32,014 bases of DNA from Anaerolineae bacterium (GCA_041479415.1 JBGOXY010000003.1:1-32014); one strand, 5' to 3'. Positions 558 to 23,807 are shown, counted from the stretch's first letter. The notes: generated by a model not told the origin, from the sequence alone. Made by a program: numbers and translations.

Positions 558-947
558 GTGAAGAAGCAAGCGGGTCTGTGGATCGATCATCGCAAGGCCG
601 TGATTGTGATTGTTACAGATGAAGGGGAAGCAATTCACGAAATAACCTCACACATGGAGAAACACGTCCGCTTTGCGGGTGGGACGGAATCGGAAGACGG
701 CTCGACTTCGGAAGACGTGCGGGACCGGCAATTTGGGAACCGCCTCAACAGCTACTACGATAGAGTCGTCGCTGTTGTTCGTGGCGCAGAGAGCATCCAG
801 ATCTTTGGGCCCGGCGAGGCCAAAGGGGAGTTGTCCAAACGGCTTGAGCACGAAGGACTCCAAGGTCATGTCCTTGCCATTGAAACCGTCGACAAGATGA
901 CAGATCGCCAGATCGCAGCCAAAGTTCGAGGGCACCTTCCGACCTAG
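558..947 (+). CDS. Small hypothetical protein, eRF1-domain-2/host-attachment-like fold
   Basis: GTG at 558 after RBS AGGAGG (545-550); motifs GLWIDHRKAVIV and IFGPGEAKGEL resemble the RNase H-like eRF1_2/baeRF-type small proteins. Confidence 0.65.
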   Translation: MKKQAGLWIDHRKAVIVIVTDEGEAIHEITSHMEKHVRFAGGTESEDGSTSEDVRDRQFGNRLNSYYDRVVAVVRGAESIQIFGPGEAKGELSKRLEHEGLQGHVLAIETVDKMTDRQIAAKVRGHLPT

Positions 948-1015
948 AGTGAGGCACAATGGCCAAGACAATACCATCCATCTGAGGCAGATCGATACCG
1001 AATCACGAGGTTATT

Positions 1016-1273
1016 GTGAGTGGCAAGTGACAGATCTCGGCTGAGGAAGCTCGTTCAACCGGAATGCGGCTCGGCCCCGACTGGGCAAGAATCGACCTGC
1101 AGCAGTTTCGGCGAGGGCTCGAGATGGAACTCGAACACGGCGCCCGCGATCCGGGAACCGACGGAACGAATGATGACCTGATCCTCACCGGCACGATTGC
1201 CTGGCTGCACCTGAAAGAGATACGGGATTACTATAGACGGTTGGATCAGCTCGAGGCAGGGGCCCAATCCTAG
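1016..1273 (+). pseudogene. DUF5661-like protein with an in-frame TGA at codon 5
   Basis: RBS GAGG (1007-1010), GTG 1016, then MSGK*QISAEEAR...FRRGLEMELEHG..D..TNDD...HLKE..DYY.RL; TGA at 1028-1030 interrupts the family-like N-terminal helix. Confidence 0.6.
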
Positions 1274-1397
1274 ACGCCCGGCCGCCAAGCTGTTGCACGC
1301 AGAAAGGATCGATCAAGAAAGCGCGGCCTGCATCTCGAGGCTGCGCTCTGTCTGATTGGCCCGACGTTGCCGTCCCGTGCATCCTGCGGAGGAAACA

Positions 1398-4022
1398 ATG
1401 AGATTGCCCAAGAATGCACCGATTGATGCGGGGACTCCGGCAAGCGTAGATCAGGCCGTGGTCTCCGATCAACTCATCGAAATGGCGCGCACGGACGGTA
1501 ACGCGGTCCTCAAGGAGCTTGCGTCGCAATTGAGCGGCCTGAGCGCGGCAGAAGCCGAGGCGCGGGTCAAACGCTATGGATTGAACGAGATCGCACGCGA
1601 AAAGCGCCAGCCCCCATGGCTACGCCTGCTGGACTATCTCAAGAATCCGCTGGTGATCCTGTTGACGGCGCTGGGCATACTTTCGTATCTGACCGGCGAC
1701 CTGCGGGCGACCGTCGTCATTTTCGTGATGGTGTTGTTGGGCGTAGTGCTGCGCTTCTTTCAGGAGATGCGCGCCGACAATGCTGCAGAAAAGCTCAAAG
1801 CCATGGTCAACACGACCGCCACCTTGGTGCGAGATGGCAAGGAATCCGAAGTGGCGCTCATACGATTGGTGCCGGGGGACATCGTACGTCTGGCCGCCGG
1901 GGACATGGTGCCCGCCGACGTCCGTGTGCTTTCCGCCAAGGATTTGTTCTTGAACCAGGCACCCCTGACCGGCGAATCCCTGCCCGTAGAGAAAGAGGCG
2001 GCCCCGCCGTCCGGCGAGATTCGCAATCCGCTCGATCTGCCGAACATCTGCTTCCTGGGATCGGATGTGGAAAGCGGCACTGCGACGGCAGTTGTCATTC
2101 GTACCGGGGACCGCACCTATTTTGGCGCGCTGGCTGCAAGCATCGTTGGGCGGCGACAACTGACCAGCTTCGACAAGGGCGTCAATAAGTTCACCTGGCT
2201 GATGATCCGTTTCATCGCCGTGATGGTGCCGGCCGTCTTCTTGATCAACGGGATGACCAAGCACCACTGGCTGGAAGCCTTCTTGTTTGCGATGGCTGTG
2301 GCGGTCGGACTGACACCCGAAATGCTGCCCATGATCGTTACCGTTAACCTGTCGAAGGGTGCCCTGGCGATGGCGCGCAAGAAAGTCATCGTCAAACGTC
2401 TGAACGCCATCCAAAACTTCGGCGCGGCAGACGTGTTGTGTACCGACAAGACTGGCACCCTCACCCAAGGCAAGATCGTGCTGGAGAAACATCTGGACGT
2501 CCACGGCCACGAGAGCGAACGCGTCCTGCACTACGGGTTTATGAACAGCTACTACCAGACCGGCCTGAAGAACTTGCTGGATGAGGCCATCCTCGAGCAC
2601 GGTCATCTTGAAGAGGACCTTAACGTCAAAACGGCCTACCGCAAGATAGACGAAATTCCCTTCGACTTTCTGCGGCGGCGCATGTCCGTCATCGTGGAGG
2701 ACAACCAGAACCGGCACATCCTGATCTGCAAGGGCGCGGTGGAGGAGATCATGCGCCTTTCGACGCGCGTGGAAGTCGAGGGGAAGGTGCTGGATGTAAC
2801 ACCCGAGCACGACGCCCACCGCAAGCATCTCGTGCACGAGTTGAACGCCCAGGGCTTTCGCGTGGTCGCCGTGGCCTACAAAATCATGCCTGGCGATGAC
2901 GATGACCCGCACTATGAGATGCAGGACGAATCCGACATGACCCTGCTGGGCTACCTGGCCTTCCTCGACCCGCCCAAGGAGACCGCAACGGAGGCCTTGA
3001 AGCGATTGAAGGCTCTGAACGTGGATGTCAAAATTCTGACCGGCGATAATGAAATCATCACCGCCTATATCTGCAGGCAGGTGGGCATGCCGGTGGATAC
3101 AATCCTGCTCGGTTCACAAATCGAAACCATGAGCGAAGCAGAACTGGCAGAAGCCGCGAGTGCGACCAGCATTTTTGCCAAGCTGGCACCGGCCCAGAAG
3201 GAACATCTCATCCACGCATTGCAGAGCAAGGGCCATGTCGTCGCCTTCATGGGGGATGGCATCAACGACGCTCCGGCCCTAAAAGCCGCCGACGTGGGCA
3301 TCTCCGTGGACAGCGCTGTGGACATCGCCAAGGAGTCGTCCGATATCATCCTGATGGAGAACAGCCTGTTGGTGCTAGAGCAAGGCGTGCTGGAAGGCCG
3401 GCGCGTGTTTGGCAACATTATCAAATACATCAAGATGGCGGCCAGCTCCAACTTCGGTAACATGTTCAGCGTGGTGGGCGCCAGCGCCTTCCTGCCCTTC
3501 CTGCCCATGCTCCCGATCCAGGTGTTGACCAATAACCTGCTCTACGACTTCTCGCAGACCACCATCCCCACCGACCAAGTGGATGCCGACTGGTTGACCA
3601 AGCCGCGCAAGTGGACCATCGGAGAAATCCAGCGCTTTATTCTGTTCATCGGCCCGATCAGTTCGATCTTCGATTACGCCACCTTCTTCATTATGATCTC
3701 TGTGTTCAAGGCCTGGAATAATCCGGCGCTATTCCACACCGGCTGGTTTGTGGAGTCGCTCTTCAGCCAGACACTCATCATTCACATCATCCGCACCAAC
3801 AAAATCCCGTTCATTCAGAGCCGGGCCAGTTGGTCATTGATCATCAGTTCTTTCATCATCGTCTCAGTGGGCGCCTGGTTAACAGTTTCACCTCTCGCCA
3901 ACACGCTCGGATTTGTGGCCCTGCCGCCCCTCTACTGGCTGCTTCTGGCAGGGCTGCTGGTGGGCTACGTCATCCTGACCCAGTTGGTCAAGACCTGGTT
4001 CTACCGCAAGTTTGGCACATGA
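1398..4022 (+). CDS. mgtA: Magnesium-translocating P-type ATPase (P3B)
   Basis: RBS GGAGG then ATG 1398; TGES, AVGLTPEMLPMIV (MgtA-typical TM4), DKTGT, GDGIND, SSNFGNMFS, LFHTGWFVES. Confidence 0.95.
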   Translation: MRLPKNAPIDAGTPASVDQAVVSDQLIEMARTDGNAVLKELASQLSGLSAAEAEARVKRYGLNEIAREKRQPPWLRLLDYLKNPLVILLTALGILSYLTGDLRATVVIFVMVLLGVVLRFFQEMRADNAAEKLKAMVNTTATLVRDGKESEVALIRLVPGDIVRLAAGDMVPADVRVLSAKDLFLNQAPLTGESLPVEKEAAPPSGEIRNPLDLPNICFLGSDVESGTATAVVIRTGDRTYFGALAASIVGRRQLTSFDKGVNKFTWLMIRFIAVMVPAVFLINGMTKHHWLEAFLFAMAVAVGLTPEMLPMIVTVNLSKGALAMARKKVIVKRLNAIQNFGAADVLCTDKTGTLTQGKIVLEKHLDVHGHESERVLHYGFMNSYYQTGLKNLLDEAILEHGHLEEDLNVKTAYRKIDEIPFDFLRRRMSVIVEDNQNRHILICKGAVEEIMRLSTRVEVEGKVLDVTPEHDAHRKHLVHELNAQGFRVVAVAYKIMPGDDDDPHYEMQDESDMTLLGYLAFLDPPKETATEALKRLKALNVDVKILTGDNEIITAYICRQVGMPVDTILLGSQIETMSEAELAEAASATSIFAKLAPAQKEHLIHALQSKGHVVAFMGDGINDAPALKAADVGISVDSAVDIAKESSDIILMENSLLVLEQGVLEGRRVFGNIIKYIKMAASSNFGNMFSVVGASAFLPFLPMLPIQVLTNNLLYDFSQTTIPTDQVDADWLTKPRKWTIGEIQRFILFIGPISSIFDYATFFIMISVFKAWNNPALFHTGWFVESLFSQTLIIHIIRTNKIPFIQSRASWSLIISSFIIVSVGAWLTVSPLANTLGFVALPPLYWLLLAGLLVGYVILTQLVKTWFYRKFGT

Positions 4023-4089
4023 TGGCTAGGGATGTGTCAGAGAATGACCTGTCGCAAGATGAAACCCTCGTCGGGAAAGGGCAAAGAAG

Positions 4090-4116
4090 TGAGCGCCCCA
4101 TCAGTTGGGGCGCTCA
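4090..4116. terminator. GC-rich hairpin downstream of mgtA, possible terminator
   Basis: TGAGCGCCCCA-TCAGT-TGGGGCGCTCA, a perfect 11-bp stem; no clear U-tract on the + strand. Confidence 0.4.
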
Positions 4117-4396
4117 TCGGATCTCGTCATGGATCGTGTCTATCTACGCTTGCGGTCCATGCAACATGTTCATTGAGGCGTCTTCTTGCACCCGCCAAGT
4201 ACCGCCGTCCCCTGCCCCCCGCAACCTACCTTCGCGCGACGTACGACAACCATGTTCGTTTTGATAGACTAGGTCTTTGCCGCTTGGGAAGGACCGATTG
4301 GCCCGGCGAGATCTAGCAACTTGATTCCCCCCGTTGCAATGGAACGTGAGAAACTGATTCGCTCAAGCTTCCAGGATTCCACTGCGCGATGATGAG

Positions 4397-4469
4397 TGCC
4401 CCCAACGAGTTTCGAACTCGTGTTTTGGCCTTGAGAGGGCCACGTCCTGGGCCGCTAGACGATGGGGGC
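4397..4469 (-). tRNA. tRNA-Glu (anticodon CTC); CCA not encoded
   Basis: Reverse complement GCCCCCATCGTCTAGCGGCCCAGGACGTGGCCCTCTCAAGGCCAAAACACGAGTTCGAAACTCGTTGGGGGCA: acceptor stem GCCCCCA/TGGGGGC, anticodon arm TGGCC-CTCTCAA-GGCCA, T-loop TTCGAAA. Confidence 0.96.
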
Positions 4470-4509
4470 CCGAGATGGCAAGCGCCCAACCGGGCGCGTA
4501 GTGCGCAAC

Positions 4510-4538
4510 ATTCTAACATGAGGCCATGGGTCGGTCAA
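4510..4538 (-). promoter_or_regulatory. sigma70-type promoter of tRNA-Glu
   Basis: Minus strand TTGACC-N17-TAGAAT with extended -10 TG, about 40 nt upstream of the tRNA. Confidence 0.7.
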
Positions 4539-4658
4539 ACGATTCGCCCCGACCTCGGCTGGCGGCAATCAAACCTGGGCGGCAGGCGAAGACGCCCCTC
4601 CGACTCACACTGCAGATCTCGCGCCGCCTCGCGCCGCGAAGCGCTCAGGCCTTTCTGT

Positions 4659-4688
4659 TTGACGCCCCTTCCCGCTTGCGGTTATAAT
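4659..4688 (+). promoter_or_regulatory. sigma70-type promoter of the DUF4388-GTPase-V4R operon
   Basis: TTGACG-N18-TATAAT. Confidence 0.7.
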
Positions 4689-4759
4689 CCCCCAGCTTCC
4701 CCCAGGGAAGCGATTTCCTAATTGCTCGCGGCGAATCGCGTCCCCTCGGACTCCCAAGA

Positions 4760-5575
4760 ATGGCCCTCCAGGGCAATCTACACGATTTTAGCGTGACCCA
4801 GCTTCTCAATCTGGTCCACCTGGCCCGCAAGACGGGGACGCTTACTATCCAGGGAACGAACGACCACGCCAGCCTCTCCTTTGCCGAGGGCAAACTGATC
4901 TACGGGCAGAGCCGCTCCAGCGACGGCACACTGATCTCGATCCTTCTCGCCGGCAAACAAATCTCCGAAGAACAAGCTCAGCTCCTGCGCTCGCGACCTC
5001 AGGCGTCGAACGACAAAGAGCTGGGGCTGCTGCTCATTCACGCCGGCTACCTCACTCAACCCGCCATCCTCCAGGCGGTGCAGAAGTACATCACCGAATT
5101 GGTGCTGCGCCTATTCACCTGGAGTGAGGGCGGCTTCCGCTTCCACAGCGGCGTGCTGCCCCCCGAAGACCGCATCACCGTGCGCCTCGACCTTGAGAAC
5201 CTGATCATGGAGGGCGCGCGGCGTATGAAGGAGTGGGAGCGCCTGCAGGAGGAGCTGCCCAACCTGGACGTAGCACTCAAGTTCACCGACCGGCCGGATT
5301 CGCGGCTGCGCAATATCAACCTGAGCGTCGAGGAATGGCGGGTGGTGTCGTATGTCAACCCGAAAAACACCATCCGTCAGATTGCACGGGCCAATCGCCT
5401 GAGCGACATCGAGATCCGCCGCATCGTCTATGGGCTGATGCAAGCGGGCATCGTCGAAAGTATCCGCCTGGAGGGCGATACCGCTCCACGCCCGCCGGTC
5501 ATTCAGCCGCTGGCCAAGGGGCCAGACCAAGTGTCGCTCATCAACCGCCTGATCACACGCATTCGGTCTTTGTGA
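4760..5575 (+). CDS. DUF4388 (PatA-N-like) domain protein with C-terminal wHTH-like segment
   Basis: MALQGNLHDFSVTQLLNLV...KTGTL...F.EGKL and LFTW.EG.F.F are typical of DUF4388; C-terminal EEWRVV..V.....IRQIA....S.......VYGL...G. Confidence 0.85.
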   Translation: MALQGNLHDFSVTQLLNLVHLARKTGTLTIQGTNDHASLSFAEGKLIYGQSRSSDGTLISILLAGKQISEEQAQLLRSRPQASNDKELGLLLIHAGYLTQPAILQAVQKYITELVLRLFTWSEGGFRFHSGVLPPEDRITVRLDLENLIMEGARRMKEWERLQEELPNLDVALKFTDRPDSRLRNINLSVEEWRVVSYVNPKNTIRQIARANRLSDIEIRRIVYGLMQAGIVESIRLEGDTAPRPPVIQPLAKGPDQVSLINRLITRIRSL

Positions 5576-5585
5576 GGATCGCAGG

Positions 5586-6122
5586 GTGTCAATCCGCACC
5601 GTCAAGATGGTGGTGACCGGCCCCTTCAACTCGGGGAAGACCGCCTTTATCCACTCGATCAGCGAGATCGATGTGGTTTCCACCGAGCGCAAGATCACGC
5701 TCCAGGCGGAAAAGATAAAGGACACCACCACGGTTGCCATGGATTTCGGGCGCATCAGCGTCGACGAGGAGCTGGTGCTGTATTTGTTCGGCACCCCCGG
5801 CCAAAAGCGCTTCGACTTCATGTGGGAAATCCTCTCGGAGGGCATGCTCGGCTTTGTAGTCATGGTCGACAGCACACGCCCTGAGACGTTTCGCGAGGCG
5901 CGCTATATCATGGAGACCTTCCGCGCCTATGCGCCCACGCCTTTCGTCGTGGCCGCCAACAAACAAGATCATCCGGATGCCTGGTCGATCGAGGACCTGC
6001 GTATTGCCTTGCGTCTCGATCCGCAAATCCGATGCCTGGAGTGTGTCGCAACTGAGCGCGAAAAGGTGAAGAACGTCCTGCTCGAGCTGCTGTACTGCAT
6101 TCTCGAAGAAGTTCAGGAGTGA
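5586..6122 (+). CDS. Small Ras-like GTPase, MglA/CvnD-like (ATP_bind_1 type)
   Basis: G1 GPFNSGKT, G2 TTVAMDFG, G3 FGTPGQKRF, G4 NKQD. Confidence 0.9.
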   Translation: MSIRTVKMVVTGPFNSGKTAFIHSISEIDVVSTERKITLQAEKIKDTTTVAMDFGRISVDEELVLYLFGTPGQKRFDFMWEILSEGMLGFVVMVDSTRPETFREARYIMETFRAYAPTPFVVAANKQDHPDAWSIEDLRIALRLDPQIRCLECVATEREKVKNVLLELLYCILEEVQE

Positions 6123-6162
6123 CACCGGCCTCAGGCCGCTCCCTGCCTCGGCCAACCCGCCT

Positions 6163-6822
6163 ATGACCGACCCATCCGCCTCCGCCCTGCAAAGCCCTTC
6201 ACCCGCGGGTTCATTCCCCTACCGGTTCGGGCGCATCGTGCTGCTCGCCTGGGAAGAAGTGCTGGGCAAGGAGGCCTTCGAGCGCGTCCTGCGGGAGGCC
6301 GATGACCCCGGCTTGCAGGCCGTGCATCTCGCCGATCCGCGCCCTTCGCACTTCAAGCTCGAGGCGCTTGGCCAGGTAGAGGGAGCTCTCGACACGTTGT
6401 ATGGCGAGCAGGCGGGGCGGGGCATGAGCTTACGCGCCGGCCGCATCGCCCTGCGCAAAGGCCTGCGCGAGATCGCCGGAGCGCTCACCGCCTCGCCGCA
6501 ATGCCGCGGCCTGCGGAGTTTGCCGCTGCAATCGCGAATCCTGCGCGGGGCCGAGCTGCTCGCGGAGGTTTTCAACCGCAACAGCGATCAGGTGGTGCGG
6601 CTGGCCACGGAGGGTCGATCGCTGCTGTGGACTAACGAGCGCTGCCCCTACTGCTTTGGCCGGCACACCCAGCGCGCATGCTGCCACCTGCTCGTGGGCA
6701 CTTTCCAGGAAGGCTTGGCCTGGCTGAGTGGTGGCAAGCACTTCGCCGTCGAAGAAGTGACCTGCGCTGCGCGCGGCGATCCGGCCTGCACCTTTCGCAT
6801 GGCCACCGCCCCCCTCGAGTAA
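6163..6822 (+). CDS. V4R (4-vinyl reductase) domain protein
   Basis: CPYC...CCH..VG...E.L.W.SGG..F.VEEVTC.ARGD..CTF Cys pattern of V4R. Confidence 0.85.
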   Translation: MTDPSASALQSPSPAGSFPYRFGRIVLLAWEEVLGKEAFERVLREADDPGLQAVHLADPRPSHFKLEALGQVEGALDTLYGEQAGRGMSLRAGRIALRKGLREIAGALTASPQCRGLRSLPLQSRILRGAELLAEVFNRNSDQVVRLATEGRSLLWTNERCPYCFGRHTQRACCHLLVGTFQEGLAWLSGGKHFAVEEVTCAARGDPACTFRMATAPLE

Positions 6823-11449: not shown

Positions 11450-11917
11450 ATGCCGGAACCGAAACTGCTCACGCCGCAAGGCGCCAGCCGTCTGCGCGCA
11501 GAGCTCGCAGAGCTCACGGGACGCGAGCGGCTCAAGCTGGCCGAACGCCTGCGCGCCGCGATTCAGCAGGGCGATCTTTCGGAGAACGCGGATTACACCG
11601 CGGCCAAGGAGGCCCAGGGCTTCCTCGAGGGTCGCATTCTCGAATTGGACGCGTTGTTGCGGCATGCGACGATCGTCGAGCCCGGGCAGGCGCCGTACGG
11701 CGAAGTCGCTCTCGGCTCGCGGGTGACGGTGGCGGTGGAGGGAGATGCGCCCGAGGTGTTTGTCCTGGTGGGCAGCACGGAGGCCGACACGCGGCAAGGA
11801 CGTATCTCGCACGAGTCCCCATTCGGGCGTGCGCTGATGGGCCATCGCGCGGGCGAGCGGGTCACGGCGGACACACCCGCGGGACCGCAAACGCTGACGA
11901 TCATCAGCATTGAGTAG
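11450..11917 (+). CDS. greA: Transcription elongation factor GreA
   Basis: GDLSENADY with both catalytic acidic residues; IS.ESP.GRAL.G. Confidence 0.95.
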   Translation: MPEPKLLTPQGASRLRAELAELTGRERLKLAERLRAAIQQGDLSENADYTAAKEAQGFLEGRILELDALLRHATIVEPGQAPYGEVALGSRVTVAVEGDAPEVFVLVGSTEADTRQGRISHESPFGRALMGHRAGERVTADTPAGPQTLTIISIE

Positions 11918-13860: not shown

Positions 13861-14168
13861 GAGGGCGCATGGCGCCCAAGGAATCTCAGTGCGCGATCGC
13901 CCTGCCTGTCATTGCGAGGAGGGCGCGCCCGACGAAGCAATCTTGAAGCCTTCCCGACCTGCGAGCCGCTGGTTGAGCACCTGTTGCTCCAAGTTTGCCT
14001 GGGCGCCTCACCCCGCTACGCGGGGCAAGGCTTCTCGCAATAATAGGAGGGGTCCTCTTCGTCATTCCGAGGGGCAAAGCCCCGAGGAATCCCGGCCTGC
14101 GATCGCAAGAGGGGTTCCCACTGCAAGCGAGCCGCCACACAAAGGGGCACGCCATGGCGTGCCCCAAC
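13861..14168. repeat. Cluster of REP-like palindromes between topA and NUDIX
   Basis: GAGGGCGCATGGCGCCCAAGGAATCT (13861), TGTCATTGCGAGGAGGGCGCGCCCGACGAAGCAATCT (13907-13943), GTCATTCCGAGGGGCAAAGCCCCGAGGAATC (14061-14091), GGGGCACGCCATGGCGTGCCCC (14144-14165). Confidence 0.85.
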
Positions 14169-14210
14169 ACCGACCGCGATCCTTGACCCAGGAACTGCCC
14201 TCTCCCCCCG

Positions 14211-17783: not shown

Positions 17784-18869
17784 CTAGAAGCGTATCACGT
17801 ATTGCATCCCCCCGACGTGGCGCACCAGCCCCTTGAGCTCCATCATCGCCAGTGCGCTGCTCACCTCTTCGATGGGCAGCTCCGCCCGCAGGCGGATTGC
17901 GTCCACGTGCAGTGGATCGCGCCCCAGGATCTCTAAGAGCCTCGCCTCGGTGGGCGAGTCTGGCAGGAGCATTCGCGCCTGGCGATGCTCGGCGACGCGT
18001 ACCAGATCCAGCGCCAAGGAAATGTCGTTCGGTTCGATCGCTGGCTGAGCGCCATCCTGGATCAGGCGATTGGTCCCGCGCGAGGCGGGGCTGAACACAT
18101 TCCCCGGTACGGCAAATACGTCCCGCCCCTGGTCGGCCGCGTAGCCCGCGGTGAGCAGCGCGCCGCTTTGTTCGCCTGCCTCGACCACGATCGTGGCCAG
18201 TGACAGCCCGGCGATGATGCGGTTGCGCGGCGGGAAGTTGGCCGCATCGGGCGGCGTGCCCGGCGCGTAGTCGCTCACCAGCGCGCCGCATTCCATGATC
18301 TGCTGCGCCAACCGGGCATGCTCCGCCGGGTAGATCGTATCCACGCCGCAGCCCATCACCGCAATCGAACGCCCGCCGGCCACCAGCGCCGCGCGATGCG
18401 CCTCGGCATCGATGCCGCGCGCCAACCCGCTGACGATGGTCAACCCCGCGCCGGCGAGCGTGGAGGCAAAGTGCACGGCGGCTTCACGTCCGTAGGCCGT
18501 CGGGCGGCGCGTGCCAACAATCGCGATCGCCCACTCATCTTGCGTGCTCAGCGCTCCGCGCACATACAACACCGGCGGCCCTACTGGGAGCTCCGCCAGT
18601 CGGCGCGGATACGCACCCTCCTCCCAGGTCAGCACCTCGATCCCGCGCGCCTCGATTGCGGCCAGCAGGGCCTCAGGATCCAGTCGTTGGCGTTCTTCGC
18701 AAAGGGATTCCGTGCTGCGCTCGTCCAACCCGGCGGCGAGCAATTCGTGGCGCGGCGCATGCCACGCATCGTGGAGGGTGGCGAAAGATTCCTTCAGCCG
18801 TCGCACACGCGCTGCACCGACGCCGCGCACGTGATTGAGCGCCACCCAGTACGGACGGTCGCCCGGCAT
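17784..18869 (-). CDS. dprA: DNA-processing protein DprA (Smf)
   Basis: AIVGTR, IVSGLARGID..AH, FPPRNRIIAGLS, VVEAGEQSG.L.TA, FAVPG, C-terminal wHTH. Confidence 0.96.
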   Translation of the reverse strand: MPGDRPYWVALNHVRGVGAARVRRLKESFATLHDAWHAPRHELLAAGLDERSTESLCEERQRLDPEALLAAIEARGIEVLTWEEGAYPRRLAELPVGPPVLYVRGALSTQDEWAIAIVGTRRPTAYGREAAVHFASTLAGAGLTIVSGLARGIDAEAHRAALVAGGRSIAVMGCGVDTIYPAEHARLAQQIMECGALVSDYAPGTPPDAANFPPRNRIIAGLSLATIVVEAGEQSGALLTAGYAADQGRDVFAVPGNVFSPASRGTNRLIQDGAQPAIEPNDISLALDLVRVAEHRQARMLLPDSPTEARLLEILGRDPLHVDAIRLRAELPIEEVSSALAMMELKGLVRHVGGMQYVIRF

Positions 18870-18897
18870 GTGCCCTCCCCCTTGGCGAGACCTGCGC

Positions 18898-18927
18898 AGA
18901 ATACCACGAGGTTTGCGGAATGGTCAA
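18898..18927 (-). promoter_or_regulatory. Putative sigma70 promoter of dprA-manC-topA
   Basis: Minus strand TTGACC-N18-TATTCT with extended -10 TG. Confidence 0.55.
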
Positions 18928-19125
18928 GCGATGCAATTGTGCAACGTGTGAGGGACTCTCCGGAGGAAGCGAGTTCGGTTGTTTATGGCGCTCGCGCACG
19001 CCCGCCACATGCATTCAGCAGTCCAATCAGCGTGATGGTTGCTCTGCGTGTGCCGTTCGCGGAGCACACGATGATGGATGGCGCGTGATGGTCATTGCGC
19101 TCAGCGCTCCCCACAAATCTCACCC

Positions 19126-19154
19126 TTGAGGTTAGAACATGTGTTCTATATACT
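19126..19154 (+). promoter_or_regulatory. sigma70 promoter of the PolB cassette
   Basis: TTGAGG(19126-19131)-N17-TATACT(19149-19154). Confidence 0.75.
19133..19148. promoter_or_regulatory. LexA (SOS) box, Gram-positive/Chloroflexota type
   Basis: TAGAAC-ATGT-GTTCTA matches GAAC-N4-GTTC and lies inside the -35/-10 spacer. Confidence 0.85.
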
Positions 19155-19217
19155 GTAGCTGCGTTGAAGGACGAAAGCCCTCCGTCGTCGCGACGAGGGG
19201 CGTGGCATACACCCTCC

Positions 19218-19484
19218 GTCATTCCGACGGCGCGTAGCGCCCGAGGAATCTCGGCTGGCGATAGGAAAGAGGGTTGCGAGCAAGGGGCGGCCTCTCCGTG
19301 TAGGGGCACGCCATGGCGTGCCCCTACACGGAGAGGCGAAATCGCCATTGCGAGCCCCGGTGGGTTCCGGGGCGAAGCAATCTTGGAGCGGCACCGCCAC
19401 AGAGTAGCAGGTCGTGCACAAGCCTCTCCCAGATTGCTTCGTCGCACTGCACCGCTGCGCGGTGCAAAGCTCCTCACAATGACA
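19218..19484. repeat. Cluster of REP-like palindromes in the leader of the PolB cassette
   Basis: GTCATTCCGA..GAGGAATC (19218-19250); perfect 48-bp palindrome 19290-19337 with GTAG-REP core; inverted pair CATTGCGA..CGAAGCAATCT (19346-19383) and AGATTGCTTCG..CACAATGACA (19431-19484). Confidence 0.85.
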
Positions 19485-19511
19485 AACGCAACTACGGTCG
19501 AAGGTGGTGGC

Positions 19512-20180
19512 ATGGTGTATCCCCAAATGCTGGTACGCAGAGTTGAAAGCGAGGCGGTCACACCGCTGCCGCTGGCCGCGGTGGGCCTGGTGGCGCTGCA
19601 CGGCACGGCGCTCATGCCGGTGGCGTTAGCCACGGTCGCCCGGCTCGCCGCGCAACGCGGCCCGGTGTGGGTGGTGGATGGCGGCAACTGCTTCGATGCG
19701 TTATGGGTCGCACGTTTCTTGGCCTCCAGCACGCCGGGCGGGCCGGCGCCGCACCTGGCGCTGGCGCGCATTCACGTCTCGCGCGCGTTCACCTGTCATC
19801 AACTGACCGAGCGTCTGCTCACGCTGCCGGCCTCGGCCAGCCCGCTGGTGATCCTCGGCCTGCTCGACACCTTCTACGACGAGAACGTTCCCTACGAAGA
19901 GACGCGCCGCCTGCTCAACTGCATCTGGCCGGTGGTGCGCGATCGCAGCCGGGCGGCGCCGGTGCTGGTCACGCTGGCCGCACCGCGCGAGACGGAGGCC
20001 GCCGGACGGCGTGCCTTCTTCGAGACCTTCCTGCGCCTGGCCGATCACACCCTCGGCCCTGCGCCGGAGGTTGCGCGCCCCTCGCCGCAGCTGCCGCTGT
20101 GGCACGCGCCGGCGGCAGGCATACCCGCCGCGTGCGAGGTGCCTGCCTTGCTCCACGCACCGGGTGCCGCGGCGCAATGA
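19512..20180 (+). CDS. Inactivated RecA/RadA-fold protein (iRadA/ImuA-like)
   Basis: No Walker A GKT (GLVALHGTALM instead); VWVVDGGNCFD, LARIHVSRAFTCHQL and LVILGLLDTFYDE follow the RadA core order; ATG 19512 after AAGGTGG. Confidence 0.75.
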   Translation: MVYPQMLVRRVESEAVTPLPLAAVGLVALHGTALMPVALATVARLAAQRGPVWVVDGGNCFDALWVARFLASSTPGGPAPHLALARIHVSRAFTCHQLTERLLTLPASASPLVILGLLDTFYDENVPYEETRRLLNCIWPVVRDRSRAAPVLVTLAAPRETEAAGRRAFFETFLRLADHTLGPAPEVARPSPQLPLWHAPAAGIPAACEVPALLHAPGAAAQ

Positions 20181-20236
20181 CATCGGCGGAGGAGGGGCGC
20201 GCCTCGCAATGACAATCGAGATATTCGGAGGTACGT

Positions 20237-20545
20237 ATGGGACGCACGTTGGCTTCGGTCACCCAGCAGGTTCAACTCGAAGAAGAACGCTTGCAACGTT
20301 ACCGCCGCGCGCTGCCACACGACGACCAGGCGCTGTTCGACCAGCTCTTCGCCTTTGCCCGCAAGCGCATCGCCGCCACGGCCATGGCCGCCGACCCGCT
20401 GCCGATGCAGACCCTCCTGCTCAGCATGCTGATCGGCCTGTTCCACCTGCTGGCCCAGATGCACGCACGCCTGGAGCGGCTCGAGAAGGCGGCTCCCACA
20501 GCGAATGAACCCCGACCTGTCCTGCCTGCGCGGCTGGATCCTTGA
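20237..20545 (+). CDS. Small alpha-helical PolB2 partner protein (arCOG07300-like)
   Basis: RBS GGAGGT; MGRT..S......E...YRRAL...DQ..FD.LF..AR....A......P.P....LLSML pattern of the small protein encoded beside archaeal PolB2. Confidence 0.78.
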   Translation: MGRTLASVTQQVQLEEERLQRYRRALPHDDQALFDQLFAFARKRIAATAMAADPLPMQTLLLSMLIGLFHLLAQMHARLERLEKAAPTANEPRPVLPARLDP

Positions 20546-22871
20546 CCTGTACCCGAGCCCGGAGGGCATGGTGCTGTGGCTCATCGACGAGACGGGCCAG
20601 GCGCACCGGATGGTCGAGCCCTTCCCCATGGCGCTCTACGTGGGCGGGCCCTCGCGGGTGCTGGCCGCGCTCGAGCACACGCTCGGGGCGCGCTACCCGC
20701 ATCTGCGCCTGGCGCGCGCCAGGCGCTTCGATATCTTCCTCGACCGCGAGATCGAGGTGCTCGAGGCCACCGCGCCTAACCCGATCGCCTACCGCGCGCT
20801 GTTCCGCGAACTCGATGAAGAACACCCGCACCTGGCTTTCTACAACGTCGATCTGAACCCGGCCCTGGTCTACGGGCTTGAGCGCGGCGTTTTCCCTCTG
20901 GCTTATTGCGCGGCCCAGGCCGAGCAGGGCCGGCTGCGCAGCCTGGTGGCCGAGGACTCACCCTGGAGCCTGGATTACACACTGCCCCCGCTGCGCATGC
21001 TCACCCTACGTCTGGGCGGCGACCTGCGCGATCCGGGTCACGGTTACCGCGGCCTGCTCGAGATCGGCACAACCCAGACCACCTACCGCTGCCGCTGGGA
21101 GAACCCGCGCGTGCTGCTCACCACGCTGCGCGCCGCGATGTATGCCATCGATCCGGATATCTTGCTCACGGCCTGGGGCGATTCGTTCATCCTACCCGAG
21201 ATCTTCCGTCTCTCCGAGCGCGAGGGAATCCCGCTGCCGTGGAATCGCGACCCGGCCATTCCCCCGGCGCGCAAGCGCGGGCGCTCGTACTTTTCCTACG
21301 GGCAAATCGTCTACCGCGCCCCCTCCATCAGCCTGTTCGGGCGCCTGCACATCGACCGTCAGACGGCGTTTCTCTCCGACGAGTACGGGCTCGACGGCAT
21401 GTACGAGCTGGCGCGCATCACCGGCCAACCGCTGCAGCAGGTGGCGCGCACCTCGACCGGCACCGGTATCAGCGCCATGCAAGTGGCCACCGCGTACCGC
21501 GAGGGCTGGCTTATCCCCTACCGCAAGCGCGAACCGGAGTCGTTCAAGACGGCGCTCGAACTTATCCGCTCCGATAAAGGCGGGCTGAGCTTCCAGCCCG
21601 AGCCGGGGCTGTACGAGGACGTGCTCGAGCTCGATTTCGCCTCGCTCTACCCGAGCCTGATGGTCAAGTTCAACCTCTCGCCCGAGACGGTAAAGAAGAA
21701 GTGCCCGCGCTGCCGGCCGCAGCTCGTGCCCGAGATCGGCTATCCGGTCTGCCGCTGCAAAACGGGAATCGTGCCGCTCACCCTCGAACCGGTGGTGGCG
21801 CGGCGGCTGGCCCTCAAGCGGCTGGCCAAAGGATTGTTCGATCACCCCTCTCAAGAAGCGGGTGCAGCCCGAGAGGGCGACACGGACGACGAGCTCGAGG
21901 TGGCCGCGCGGCCCGATGAACGCAAGCGCGAGATGTACCGCCGCCGCCAGCTCGCGCTCAAGTGGCTGTTGGTGACCTGCTTCGGCTACCTGGGCTACAA
22001 GAACGCGCGCTTCGGGCGCATCGAGGCGCACGAAGCGACCACGGCTTATGGGCGCGAGATGCTCCTGCGCGCCAAGGAGATCGCCGAGGCGCGCGGCTAT
22101 ACCTTCCTGCACGGGCTGACCGATTCGCTGTGGGTGCACAAACGCGGCGCGACGCAGGCCGAGCACCAGGCCCTGGCCGACGCGATCAGCCAGGCCTGCG
22201 GCGTGCTGATCGGCTTGGAGGGGGTCTACCGTTGGGTGGCTTTTCTGCCCTCGCGCGTGCGCGCCGAGCTTTCGGTGGCTACCCGCTACTTCGGCCTGTT
22301 CGAGAGCGGCGAGATGAAACTGCGCGGCATCGAGGTGCGCCGCCACGATACCATCCTGTGGGTGCGCCAGGCGCAGCAGGCCATGCTGGCCATCCTGGCC
22401 GAAGCCCGCAACGCCCGCGAGTACCGCCGGCGGCTGGAGGATGTGTTCTCCCTGGCGCGCACGCTGCTGGCTCGCCTGCGCAGCGGCAAGGTCCCGGCCG
22501 CGCAATTGCTCATCACCAACCGCCTCTCCCGCAAGCCGGGCGAGTATCGCTCGCGCCAGGCGGTGGCTCTGGCCGCGCGCGAACTCGAGGCGCGCGGCGT
22601 GGCCCTGGCGCCGGGCGAAAGCATCGAATACATCCTGACCGCGGGCGGCGGCGCGCGTCCTTTTGAGGCGTGGTCGGCGGAAGATCGCTACGACGTGGCG
22701 CGCTACGAGGAATTGTTCATGCGCATGCTCGAGACGCTGGCCGTCCCAGCCGGGCTCGGGCGCAAGGAGATCGTCGAGCGCCTCACCGGCATCGGCCAGC
22801 CGGAACTGCTTGGCAGCGATGACGTCATTCCGCCGCCCGAGACGCGTCCAAGAATCTGGTCCTCAACATAA
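20505..22871 (+). CDS. Family B DNA polymerase, PolB2/Dpo2-like, exonuclease-inactive
   Basis: Motif A DFASLYPS, motif B KWLLVTCFGYLG, variant motif C HGLTDS, K.RGIE.RR.D; N-terminal GWILDLYP; Exo acidic residues not recognisable. Confidence 0.92.
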   Translation: MNPDLSCLRGWILDLYPSPEGMVLWLIDETGQAHRMVEPFPMALYVGGPSRVLAALEHTLGARYPHLRLARARRFDIFLDREIEVLEATAPNPIAYRALFRELDEEHPHLAFYNVDLNPALVYGLERGVFPLAYCAAQAEQGRLRSLVAEDSPWSLDYTLPPLRMLTLRLGGDLRDPGHGYRGLLEIGTTQTTYRCRWENPRVLLTTLRAAMYAIDPDILLTAWGDSFILPEIFRLSEREGIPLPWNRDPAIPPARKRGRSYFSYGQIVYRAPSISLFGRLHIDRQTAFLSDEYGLDGMYELARITGQPLQQVARTSTGTGISAMQVATAYREGWLIPYRKREPESFKTALELIRSDKGGLSFQPEPGLYEDVLELDFASLYPSLMVKFNLSPETVKKKCPRCRPQLVPEIGYPVCRCKTGIVPLTLEPVVARRLALKRLAKGLFDHPSQEAGAAREGDTDDELEVAARPDERKREMYRRRQLALKWLLVTCFGYLGYKNARFGRIEAHEATTAYGREMLLRAKEIAEARGYTFLHGLTDSLWVHKRGATQAEHQALADAISQACGVLIGLEGVYRWVAFLPSRVRAELSVATRYFGLFESGEMKLRGIEVRRHDTILWVRQAQQAMLAILAEARNAREYRRRLEDVFSLARTLLARLRSGKVPAAQLLITNRLSRKPGEYRSRQAVALAARELEARGVALAPGESIEYILTAGGGARPFEAWSAEDRYDVARYEELFMRMLETLAVPAGLGRKEIVERLTGIGQPELLGSDDVIPPPETRPRIWSST

Positions 22872-22884
22872 CGGTGCGGCCCTT

Positions 22885-22994
22885 GTTGGGGCACGCCATG
22901 GCGTGCCCCTACGGGATAGAGCTGCCTCGAGATTGTTGGCCTCTCATACACCGCAAGCCGGGATTCCTCGGGCACCGTGTGCCCTCCGAATGAC
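22885..22994 (-). repeat. Composite REP-like element (inverted relative to the copy at 19218)
   Basis: GTTGGGGCACGCCATGGCGTGCCCCTAC (22885-22912) and GATTCCTCGGGCACCGTGTGCCCTCCGAATGAC (22962-22994). Confidence 0.85.
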
Positions 22995-23033
22995 AGAGGG
23001 GCTTTTTGGTCCAGCCCGCCGCGCTGCGCTTCA

Positions 23034-23807
23034 TCAGAACCGCCCTTCGCGCAAAAGCGCGAGTAGGTCGCGTGCGCCCTGAACCCCCTGCCCTCGATAG
23101 TGGTTGTTGAAGTACACCAGCGCCAACTCCGACTGTTCTTCGAGTGCTTCCAGCCGTGGCACCCACTCCTTGAGTTCGTCGCGCGAGTAGGTGTAGTCGT
23201 ATCGCTCCCAGGCCTCTTTATGTTCAAACCACTTGGCTGCGTTCCGCCCATGGAAGCGCACGTACCCGATCGGACCGGTAACCACTGAGACGGCCGGCAT
23301 CAGCCCGCGCAACGATGGTTCATCAACACAGCAGTATCCGAGTTGAAGCGAGCGAAGTAGATCGTACGTGGAATCTGCCACCCACCCAGCGTTGCGGAAT
23401 TCCACGACGACCGGTAGATCCCCAAACCCTTCGCGCAATTGCTTCACGTATTCGCGGTTGGGAGGCGTCGCGTGAAAGGCGTAGGGGAACTGAGCCAGGA
23501 TGCAACCCATGCGGCCAGATTCGATCATCGGCCGAATGGCTTCGACAAACCCGTGGAAATCCGGTTCGGCCCGCTCGTGGGTGAGCCCTTGGAATGCTTT
23601 GACCGCGAAGAGGAACGACTGCGGGGTGCGCTTCAACCAGCCTGCAACGGTCTTCGCCGAGGGCACGCGATAGAAGGTGACATTAAGCTCAACGGTGGAG
23701 AACTCGCGCGCGTAGAAATCGAGCCATTCCCGCTCGGGGAGGTCCGGCGGATAGACCGGACCGACCCAGTCCTTGTACGAGAACCCCGATGTGCCGACCC
23801 GGATCAT
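23034..23807 (-). CDS. DUF72 (YecE-like) TIM-barrel protein
   Basis: IRVGTSGFSYKDW.G.VYP, VELN.TFYR.P, F.VKA...LTH, VVEFRN..W, YVRFHGRN, YDY.YS..EL..W, YFNNH. Confidence 0.93.
   Translation of the reverse strand: MIRVGTSGFSYKDWVGPVYPPDLPEREWLDFYAREFSTVELNVTFYRVPSAKTVAGWLKRTPQSFLFAVKAFQGLTHERAEPDFHGFVEAIRPMIESGRMGCILAQFPYAFHATPPNREYVKQLREGFGDLPVVVEFRNAGWVADSTYDLLRSLQLGYCCVDEPSLRGLMPAVSVVTGPIGYVRFHGRNAAKWFEHKEAWERYDYTYSRDELKEWVPRLEALEEQSELALVYFNNHYRGQGVQGARDLLALLREGRF

Follow-up and report, generated by a model that had tools for sequence, protein, structure and literature searches.

The operon described here lies in a 32,014-bp stretch of DNA (hereafter the window), which is the entire contig C3 of an Anaerolineae bacterium assembly (GCA_041479415.1; 2.37 Mb in 306 contigs, 65% GC, rated 89% complete). 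The host is an Anaerolineales-type member of the Chloroflexota, and near-identical loci come from metagenome-assembled genomes labelled Anaerolineales or Chloroflexota. The operon consists of three genes on the plus strand, encoding an inactivated RadA/Rad51-like protein (iRadA), a small protein of the PPB2 family and a family B DNA polymerase (PolB2). All three are homologous to the genes of the archaeal PolB2 trio, and they stand behind one sigma-70 promoter that shares a palindrome with the promoter of the genome's lexA gene.

The sigma-70-type promoter occupies positions 19126-19154 of the plus strand, with a -35 element TTGAGG (19126-19131) and a -10 element TATACT (19149-19154) separated by a 17-nt spacer, and it matches 9 of 12 consensus positions. 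A scan of the 4.6 kb from 18700 to 23300 returned two promoter-like sites, compared with 0.5 expected from shuffles, and the only one on the plus strand is the operon promoter. Within its spacer lies the predicted LexA operator, TAGAACATGTGTTCTA (19133-19148, assigned to neither strand; core GAAC-N4-GTTC at 19135-19146), which covers 16 of the 17 spacer bases. A search of the 32-kb window tolerating one mismatch found this palindrome once, whereas 0.02 matches are expected and only 2 of 100 shuffles reached one. GAAC-N4-GTTC is the motif used by the LexA of Dehalococcoides. In Gram-positive bacteria, too, it has been described as the sequence that LexA recognises (PMC3323433).

The first gene encodes the 222-aa iRadA (19512-20180, plus strand) and sits within an open reading frame spanning 19095-20180. 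We place its start at ATG 19512 because the four close relatives in the alignment retain both this codon and its ribosome-binding site, while the sequence upstream diverges with indels. The protein matched nothing in Pfam or NCBIfam. A profile built from 20 sequences (gene 1 and its orthologues) recovered the ATPase core of Pyrococcus RadA from the PDB at E = 9e-8, followed by Rad51, Rad51D, DMC1 and XRCC2, with RecA reaching only E = 8.4. We rejected an identity as ImuA or RecA, given that no Pfam or NCBIfam model supports it and that in the profile search RecA falls seven orders of magnitude behind RadA/Rad51. The Walker A motif GK[ST] is absent from all 23 iRadA sequences, and the blocks DGGN, SRAFTCYQ and LLxTFYDE are invariant. 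Residues 193-197 of the window's protein (20088-20102) form a beta-clamp-like motif, QLPLW, followed by a 25-aa tail; iRadA of more distant relatives carries a C-terminal Q(L/P)xLF, that is, QLxLF or QPxLF.

The second gene (20237-20545, plus strand), preceded by GGAGG, encodes a 102-aa protein beginning MGRTLASV that belongs to PPB2 (arCOG07300/DUF8156). The MGRT N-terminus is found in 21 of 22 orthologues. A profile of this protein matched 1,965 proteins at E <= 1e-3 among 5,632 candidates, the best 120 of which all carry PF26485.1 (DUF8156), and its matches in the protein atlas are DUF8156 clusters of both bacteria and archaea (Nitrososphaerota).

The third gene (20505-22871, plus strand) overlaps the second by 41 nt and encodes the 788-aa polymerase (Pfam DNA_pol_B, E = 5.9e-33). 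Motif A is intact (DFASLYPS, with D377, Y382 and P383) and the KxxxxxxFGYxGY block is kept. Motif C reads HGLTDS, compared with YIDTDG in Deep Vent polymerase, so that LTD (L538-T539-D540) replaces the catalytic DTD. All 22 orthologues lack the first aspartate of motif C (20 judged by pattern, L053 and L055 by alignment), and D377 of motif A and D540 of motif C are invariant over 21 aligned sequences. In the exonuclease domain, Exo II reads GDSFILP where Deep Vent has GDSFDLP, placing Ile229 in the position of the aspartate, and the Exo I region, which aligns weakly (6.2 bits), has no DxE at the aligned place. The nearest solved structures are Thermococcales PolBs (Deep Vent/Pyrococcus, E = 5.5e-46), followed by Sulfolobus Dpo1 (3.9e-19) and E. 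coli Pol II (3.7e-12). The top NCBIfam models are PRK05761.1-2 and PRK05761.1-4, 'type B DNA-directed DNA polymerase', at 380 and 336 bits, both under their cut-offs; Pol II models rank last, at 77 bits or less (NF004421, 76.7 bits against a cut-off of 570). On these shared features, by which the clade placement is judged, the three genes are best classed as an iRadA-PPB2-PolB2 trio. A sequence-only reading of this DNA had proposed a promoter whose 17-nt spacer holds the palindrome, a Walker-A-less first gene of RecA/RadA type, a co-oriented 102-aa gene in the middle and an overlapping family B polymerase that would prove PolB2-like and distinct from E. coli Pol II. Each of these elements is borne out, with the promoter scan returning the promoter at the same positions.

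We compared the operon with five close loci (including L004, L006, L007 and L008) from species-level relatives, whose PolB is 94-97% identical to that of the window, and with 17 distant loci drawn from 16 genomes, whose PolB is 37-42% identical. The order iRadA-PPB2-PolB on one strand is found in 17 of the 17 distant loci. The promoter and its box are kept at four of the five close loci (L004, L006, L007 and L008) though the DNA upstream of the promoter diverges, being unrelated in two of these four; the contig of the fifth begins at iRadA, which cuts off the promoter region. At eleven of the 17 distant loci, a TTGAC(A)...TATAAT promoter 1,050-1,430 bp before PolB contains an exact box, and each such box is the sole exact one in its 6.6-6.8 kb stretch. 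Four further distant loci have a one-mismatch box in the same promoter setting, bringing the total to 15 of 17. Because the 16-bp palindrome persists where the intergenic DNA around it no longer aligns, it bears what appears to be the signature of a functional operator. The sequence-only reading had likewise named as checks the presence of both partners beside orthologues and of GAAC-N4-GTTC upstream of them; the partners are there throughout the distant loci, and the box at most of them.

The genome has a single lexA gene, on contig C114, which encodes a protein with helix-turn-helix (HTH) and S24 domains (TIGR00498, 158.6 bits against a cut-off of 110.95). Its own promoter is TTGACA-17-TAGCAT, with CAGAACAGATGTTCGTG in the spacer, and lexA of relatives has the exact box in a TTGACA-17-TAtaAT spacer in five of five cases. 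The 2.37-Mb assembly holds 22 exact GAAC-N4-GTTC sites, seven of which are of the A/T-flanked AGAACAnnTGTTCT type, two of the seven being one sequence at two contig ends (C35:17 = C111:372). A matrix made from these A/T-flanked boxes, and so circular for its own seed sites, scores the seven at 20-36 bits and everything else at 17.5 bits or less. Besides lexA, the box stands in a promoter spacer at the PolB2 operon, at an 87-aa GerE/LuxR gene (C111) and at a gene on C113 (5456-6160), whose promoter holds the box at C113:5388; the 234-aa product of this gene crosses the membrane several times, matches nothing in Pfam and may be an SOS division inhibitor. Strong boxes also occur at C7:22235 and C202:3741; the C202 box has no clear gene, and one strong box overlaps the start codon of mraZ, with the ATG inside the box spacer. 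The genome-wide scan found no box at recA or at the Pol IV gene (dinB). This distribution suggests a very small LexA regulon, consisting of lexA, the PolB2 operon, a LuxR-type regulator, the membrane protein and perhaps mraZ. The expectation that lexA and recA of this genome would both share the operon's box was therefore right for lexA, where it occupies the same spacer position, and wrong for recA.

We also surveyed the other polymerases of the genome. Its one Y-family (IMS-domain) gene encodes Pol IV (NF002677, 324 bits against 256; UmuC model, 91 against 431), its one DnaE scores 718 bits on the DnaE2 model against a cut-off of 939, and its sole Peptidase_S24 gene is lexA. No dnaE2 above the cut-off, umuD, imuA or second PolB was found in this 89%-complete assembly. 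Since Pol IV has no box and neither DnaE2, umuD nor a second PolB was found, the PolB2 operon is the only polymerase locus with a LexA box in this assembly. Across the order, four of 61 genomes pass the DnaE2 cut-off, and in two genomes (G076 and G148) PolB2 is accompanied by a second DnaE-like gene, about 1,030-1,095 aa long; PolB2 is therefore not a strict replacement for DnaE2 in the group. The proposal that PolB2 serves instead of DnaE2 or Pol V thus holds for this genome but is no rule in the order. PolB2 itself is patchy across the phylum, occurring in 17 of 401 sampled genomes, the window's included, with 15 of the 16 others from the same order.

Between the promoter and iRadA lies an untranslated leader of about 350 nt (19155-19511, plus strand), which consists largely of dispersed repeats resembling repetitive extragenic palindromic (REP) elements. 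Its alignment with the leaders of relatives is broken by indels, and no reading frame is conserved in it. A perfect 48-nt palindrome (19290-19337) within the leader can form a hairpin with a 22-bp stem (-56.6 kcal/mol, z = -10.5) and no U-tract behind the stem, and the promoter scan found no second promoter-like site in the leader. The REP-like repeat, with core GGGGCACGCCATGGCGTGCCCC, occurs at about 15 places in the genome; in the window it lies at 19171-19345, 22881-23000 and 14143-14170, and further copies are found near the C113 box, upstream of recA and, in relatives L004, L005 and L008, between iRadA and PPB2. The copy behind PolB (22881-23010, plus strand) is inverted relative to that in the leader, and its last part is a short hairpin plus CTTTTT (about 22984-23010), where the transcript may end; a consensus terminator scan made no call at 22881-23010. 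We considered whether these inverted repeats mark a composite transposon and rejected this, as they belong to a dispersed family with about 15 sites that also lies between iRadA and PPB2 in relatives. At distant loci L042, L051, L052 and L054, and at those where a LuxR-type gene comes first (e.g. L043 and L053), the first ATG of the operon lies 6-11 nt past the -10 element, which suggests that the operon mRNAs of distant relatives are leaderless.

A weak hint that the operon is expressed comes from metatranscriptomes: contigs from four runs, all belonging to a single study, match parts of it at 95-99% identity, and two of these contigs span the PPB2/PolB junction. One RNA contig joins 19388 to 22885, a junction that we set aside as repeat-mediated (20 letters on the shorter side).

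In 11 of the 17 distant loci (L043-L047, L049, L050, L053 and L055-L057), a gene for a 135-180-aa GerE/LuxR-type HTH protein (Pfam GerE, 1e-13 to 4e-15) comes first after the LexA-box promoter and immediately precedes iRadA. This gene is missing from the window's operon, and tblastn gave no remnant of a decayed LuxR gene inside the leader of about 350 nt. For four of five GerE queries from relatives, the best match in the window's genome is the 87-aa GerE protein at C111:436-699 (GerE, 2e-19), whose gene has its own promoter, TTGACA-TTTAGAACAAATGTTCTA-TATAAT. It is conceivable, though we hold this only tentatively, that the SOS-controlled PolB2 unit of the Anaerolineales has this small GerE/LuxR-type protein as a fourth conserved member. 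Its role would then be either to act as a second-tier damage regulator, broadening a tiny LexA regulon, or to assist the mutasome by binding DNA. The GerE HTH resembles sigma region 4, and Pfam Sigma70_r4 matches it too; PPB2 reportedly resembles sigma region 2. More speculatively, the GerE protein and PPB2 might be descended from, or act like, a split sigma-type module.

The operon is flanked by dprA, divergent on the upstream side, and by a DUF72 gene (23034-23807, minus strand) that is convergent to PolB and has no LexA box of its own. DUF72 adjoins PolB in the five close relatives only. We rejected it as a conserved partner, since it was found at none of the 17 distant loci, whose stretches reach only about 1.5 kb beyond PolB. 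The wider surroundings are housekeeping in character (topA, dprA, a ManC-like gene, an M29 peptidase and P-type ATPases), and no mobile element was seen among them. An Rfam scan found one tRNA in the window (4397-4469) and no matches in the operon region. Two close relatives have a dprA match broken into several pieces that lie in different frames (L006, about 3253-4336; L007, about 3513-4592), apparently through frameshifts or assembly errors.

Taken together, the box at the genome's own lexA, the boxes at orthologous operons and the conserved gene order support the idea, already put forward in the sequence-only reading, of an SOS translesion trio under LexA. We consider it probable that the locus is a chromosomal bacterial PolB2 mutasome operon, iRadA-PPB2-PolB2, that is repressed by LexA and turned on by DNA damage. 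A LexA dimer bound to the spacer would block RNA polymerase, and upon damage RecA-stimulated self-cleavage of LexA would free the promoter. A single transcript would then yield iRadA, PPB2 and PolB2, the last two probably translationally coupled through their 41-nt overlap. The products may assemble as predicted by Timinskas et al. (PMC11791011), with one PolB2, one iRadA and a PPB2 trimer (1:1:3); the MGRT arm of PPB2 would sit between PolB2 and iRadA, and the QLxL(F/W) motif of iRadA would recruit the complex to the beta clamp. If it acts like Sulfolobus Dpo2, the exonuclease-less PolB2 would extend lesion-opposed or mismatched primer ends at the cost of mutations, with insertion opposite the lesion most likely made by the genome's Pol IV.

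Several observations weigh against this reading, and some of them also favour one or another alternative. L048 and L058, two of the 17 distant loci, have no box within one mismatch, and the close and distant relatives are kin, so that locus counts are not independent events. The operator is a predicted one and recA, a classical SOS gene, lacks it, so the palindrome could be bound by another regulator or have arisen by chance, leaving the operon outside the SOS regulon. We find this scarcely credible, since the same motif in the same spacer position marks the genome's own lexA and all five lexA genes of relatives, is the LexA motif of Gram-positive bacteria (PMC3323433) and is kept at 15 of 17 distant loci despite unalignable flanks, with a chance expectation of 0.02 per window. 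A different concern is that the promoter and box are real yet no longer drive the trio in the window's clade, the leader stopping or processing the transcript and the genes being expressed from elsewhere or silent. The long repeat leader (170-400 nt) between promoter and first gene is confined to this clade, as is its 48-nt palindrome, and it might attenuate or process the transcript, unlike the distant operons with their first ATG 6-11 nt past the -10 element. Furthermore, recA has an in-frame TAA at a conserved lysine codon (C47, about 11586-11588; L002:2173-2175; RRIQSI*VGAEVVG, in …RRIQSI*VGAEVVGSRTRV…), which could just as well stem from a mistake in the assembly or consensus as from a true nonsense allele; if real, SOS induction would be crippled and the strain could not induce the regulon, adding to silence. 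However, 19155-19511 offers no other promoter-like site, the hairpin lacks a U-tract, the promoter, box and reading frames are all kept in species-level relatives with 94-97% PolB identity, and RNA-library contigs cover the genes. These contigs may reflect DNA carry-over and thus do not prove transcription; they come from samples with no damage treatment and do not address induction, and gaps in their coverage carry no information. Overall, we judge an uncoupled promoter to be distinctly improbable.

The remaining points concern the proteins rather than their control. The clamp-like motif of the window's clade is QLPLW and is internal rather than C-terminal. More importantly, the first catalytic aspartate of motif C is missing, and activity is projected from archaeal Dpo2 alone. 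Together with the lost Exo II aspartate and a RadA without an ATPase site, this raises the possibility that LexA controls a trio whose polymerase is catalytically dead and which has a non-synthetic role, for example at stalled forks or in the regulation of replication. Such roles were the original proposal for PolB2 by Makarova et al. in 2014 (PMC4104785), and no enzyme assay on a bacterial protein was found in the literature. More broadly, our literature search, with most subscription journals and supplements outside its scope, found no binding, induction or activity experiment on a bacterial PolB2 and no operator-level analysis. Nonetheless, Sulfolobus Dpo2, with a similar change in motif C, is a robust polymerase needed for damage-induced mutagenesis (PMC7390963, PMC8764526), and the invariance of D377 and D540 in the 21 aligned sequences argues for retained catalysis. 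We therefore regard a dead polymerase as unlikely, and a LexA-controlled PolB2 mutasome remains our preferred explanation.

Bacterial PolB2 mutasomes have so far been known from comparative genomics and structure prediction alone, and a 2026 review still treats the bacterial PolB2 complex as a prediction to verify. The locus offers a precise, testable element, a 16-bp operator in one promoter that is shared with lexA, and thereby replaces the observation that lexA often lies nearby with the prediction that LexA occupies this promoter. A B-family mutasome would be the lineage's only inducible polymerase, in a role filled elsewhere by imuABC or Pol V. If so, it would represent a third independent bacterial solution for SOS mutagenesis, one acquired from archaea, and would bear on how uncultured Chloroflexota of sediment and soil generate variation. 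The sequence-only reading had stated that such trios appear in comparative surveys but that no experimentally characterised bacterial example was known to it, and had placed the novelty mainly in function and regulation. Our search likewise found no experiment on a bacterial example, but the novelty was overstated, as the operon type and its link to lexA were published in 2014 and 2025; a search of full-text literature for PolB2 together with LexA returned nothing beyond these two papers (PMC4104785, PMC11791011). What is new here is modest but real: the operator-level evidence, the GerE/LuxR gene in 11 of 17 relatives' operons, an apparently tiny LexA regulon and the repeat-laden leader.

Relative to archaeal trios, the window's operon has a homologous PPB2, the iRadA signature RIHV(S/A)R(A/G)FT(C/A)YQ and a PolB without a full DxD. 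It differs in that the archaeal regulator is Orc1/Cdc6 and the clamp PCNA, compared with LexA and a putative beta-clamp-type motif in the present system, and PolB identity is about 30%. Sulfolobus Dpo2 is described as a damage-induced, active, exonuclease-less extender, and its authors suggested likewise for bacterial PolB2 (PMC8764526). A tblastn search of PolB2 against 72,556 plasmids returned 102 records. The best 25 are all haloarchaeal, as are the genera that recur most in the remainder; the matches show about 30-32% identity over 82-95% of the protein. Haloarcula marismortui pNG600 (NC_006394.1, L072) carries, at 720-6437, a 313-aa decayed RadA-like protein with RIHVARGFTAYQ, a 107-aa MGRT protein, a 131-aa open reading frame, PolB and orc1/cdc6. 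The window's gene 2 is 34% identical to the 107-aa protein (pairwise E = 4e-12). The window's iRadA aligns weakly with the RadA-like protein (hhalign E = 6e-4 over 43 columns), which fits the published description of the haloarchaeal version as badly decayed (PMC4104785). In a Haladaptatus plasmid locus (L073), the 83-aa protein ahead of PolB begins MSQT rather than MGRT. Both haloarchaeal plasmid loci inspected have a PPB2-like gene just upstream of PolB.

Matches to PolB2 are rare among phages, with four of 50,697 records, all Leptospira LE1-like and 32-33% identical. Leptospira phage vB_LbrZ_5399-LE1 (KF114879.1, L074) has the full trio at 2683-5939, comprising a 196-aa iRadA-like protein (IHLQRAFTPYQ), a 94-aa MGRT open reading frame (annotated only as a 55-aa coding sequence, 3332-3499) and an 817-aa PolB with motif C ITD. 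As LE1 carries the whole trio, a PolB2 mutasome travels on a phage-plasmid. We rejected the reading of the window's polymerase as a phage or mobile-element enzyme, considering its housekeeping neighbours, the four phage matches and the trio's presence as cargo in the one phage inspected. This agrees with the earlier view that the polymerase is not of phage type.

Among bacterial mutasomes, imuA-imuB-dnaE2 is also a LexA-controlled cassette with an inactive RecA-superfamily protein first and an error-prone polymerase last (PMC3323433). However, its polymerase belongs to family C rather than family B, and the window has no ImuB-type Y-family adaptor and a RadA-like first gene that matches no ImuA model. 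The Pol V mutasome (UmuD'2C-RecA) similarly combines SOS control with a polymerase, an oligomeric small subunit with an N-terminal arm and a recombinase-fold subunit (PMC11791011); it differs in its Y-family polymerase, active RecA and S24 protease-fold UmuD, whereas in the window's genome the sole S24 protein is LexA and the Y-family gene stays below the UmuC cut-off. E. coli Pol II (polB) is a LexA-regulated family B polymerase in damage tolerance, but it consists of one subunit, retains an active proofreading exonuclease and scored 48 bits in the PDB search.

The closest counterparts are the published bacterial iRadA-PPB2-PolB2 operons, which have a single gene order and are enriched for lexA and DUF72 nearby (Makarova et al., 2014, PMC4104785; Timinskas et al., 2025, PMC11791011); one example is Leptospirillum ferriphilum LFML04_0990-0993 (Makarova et al., 2014, PMC4104785). 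Both the archaeal origin of the bacterial trio and the mutasome model have already been published (PMC4104785, PMC11791011). The words promoter, LuxR, HTH and Chloroflex are absent from the main text of PMC11791011, which does not mention the inserted GerE/LuxR gene. The window's operon shares with the published ones the same families in the same order, an MGRT PPB2, a putative clamp-type motif on iRadA, an SOS link and an adjoining DUF72 gene. The difference lies in the nature of the SOS link, which in the published operons is a lexA gene in or near the operon; here the link is a predicted operator within the promoter itself, lexA being on another contig (C114).

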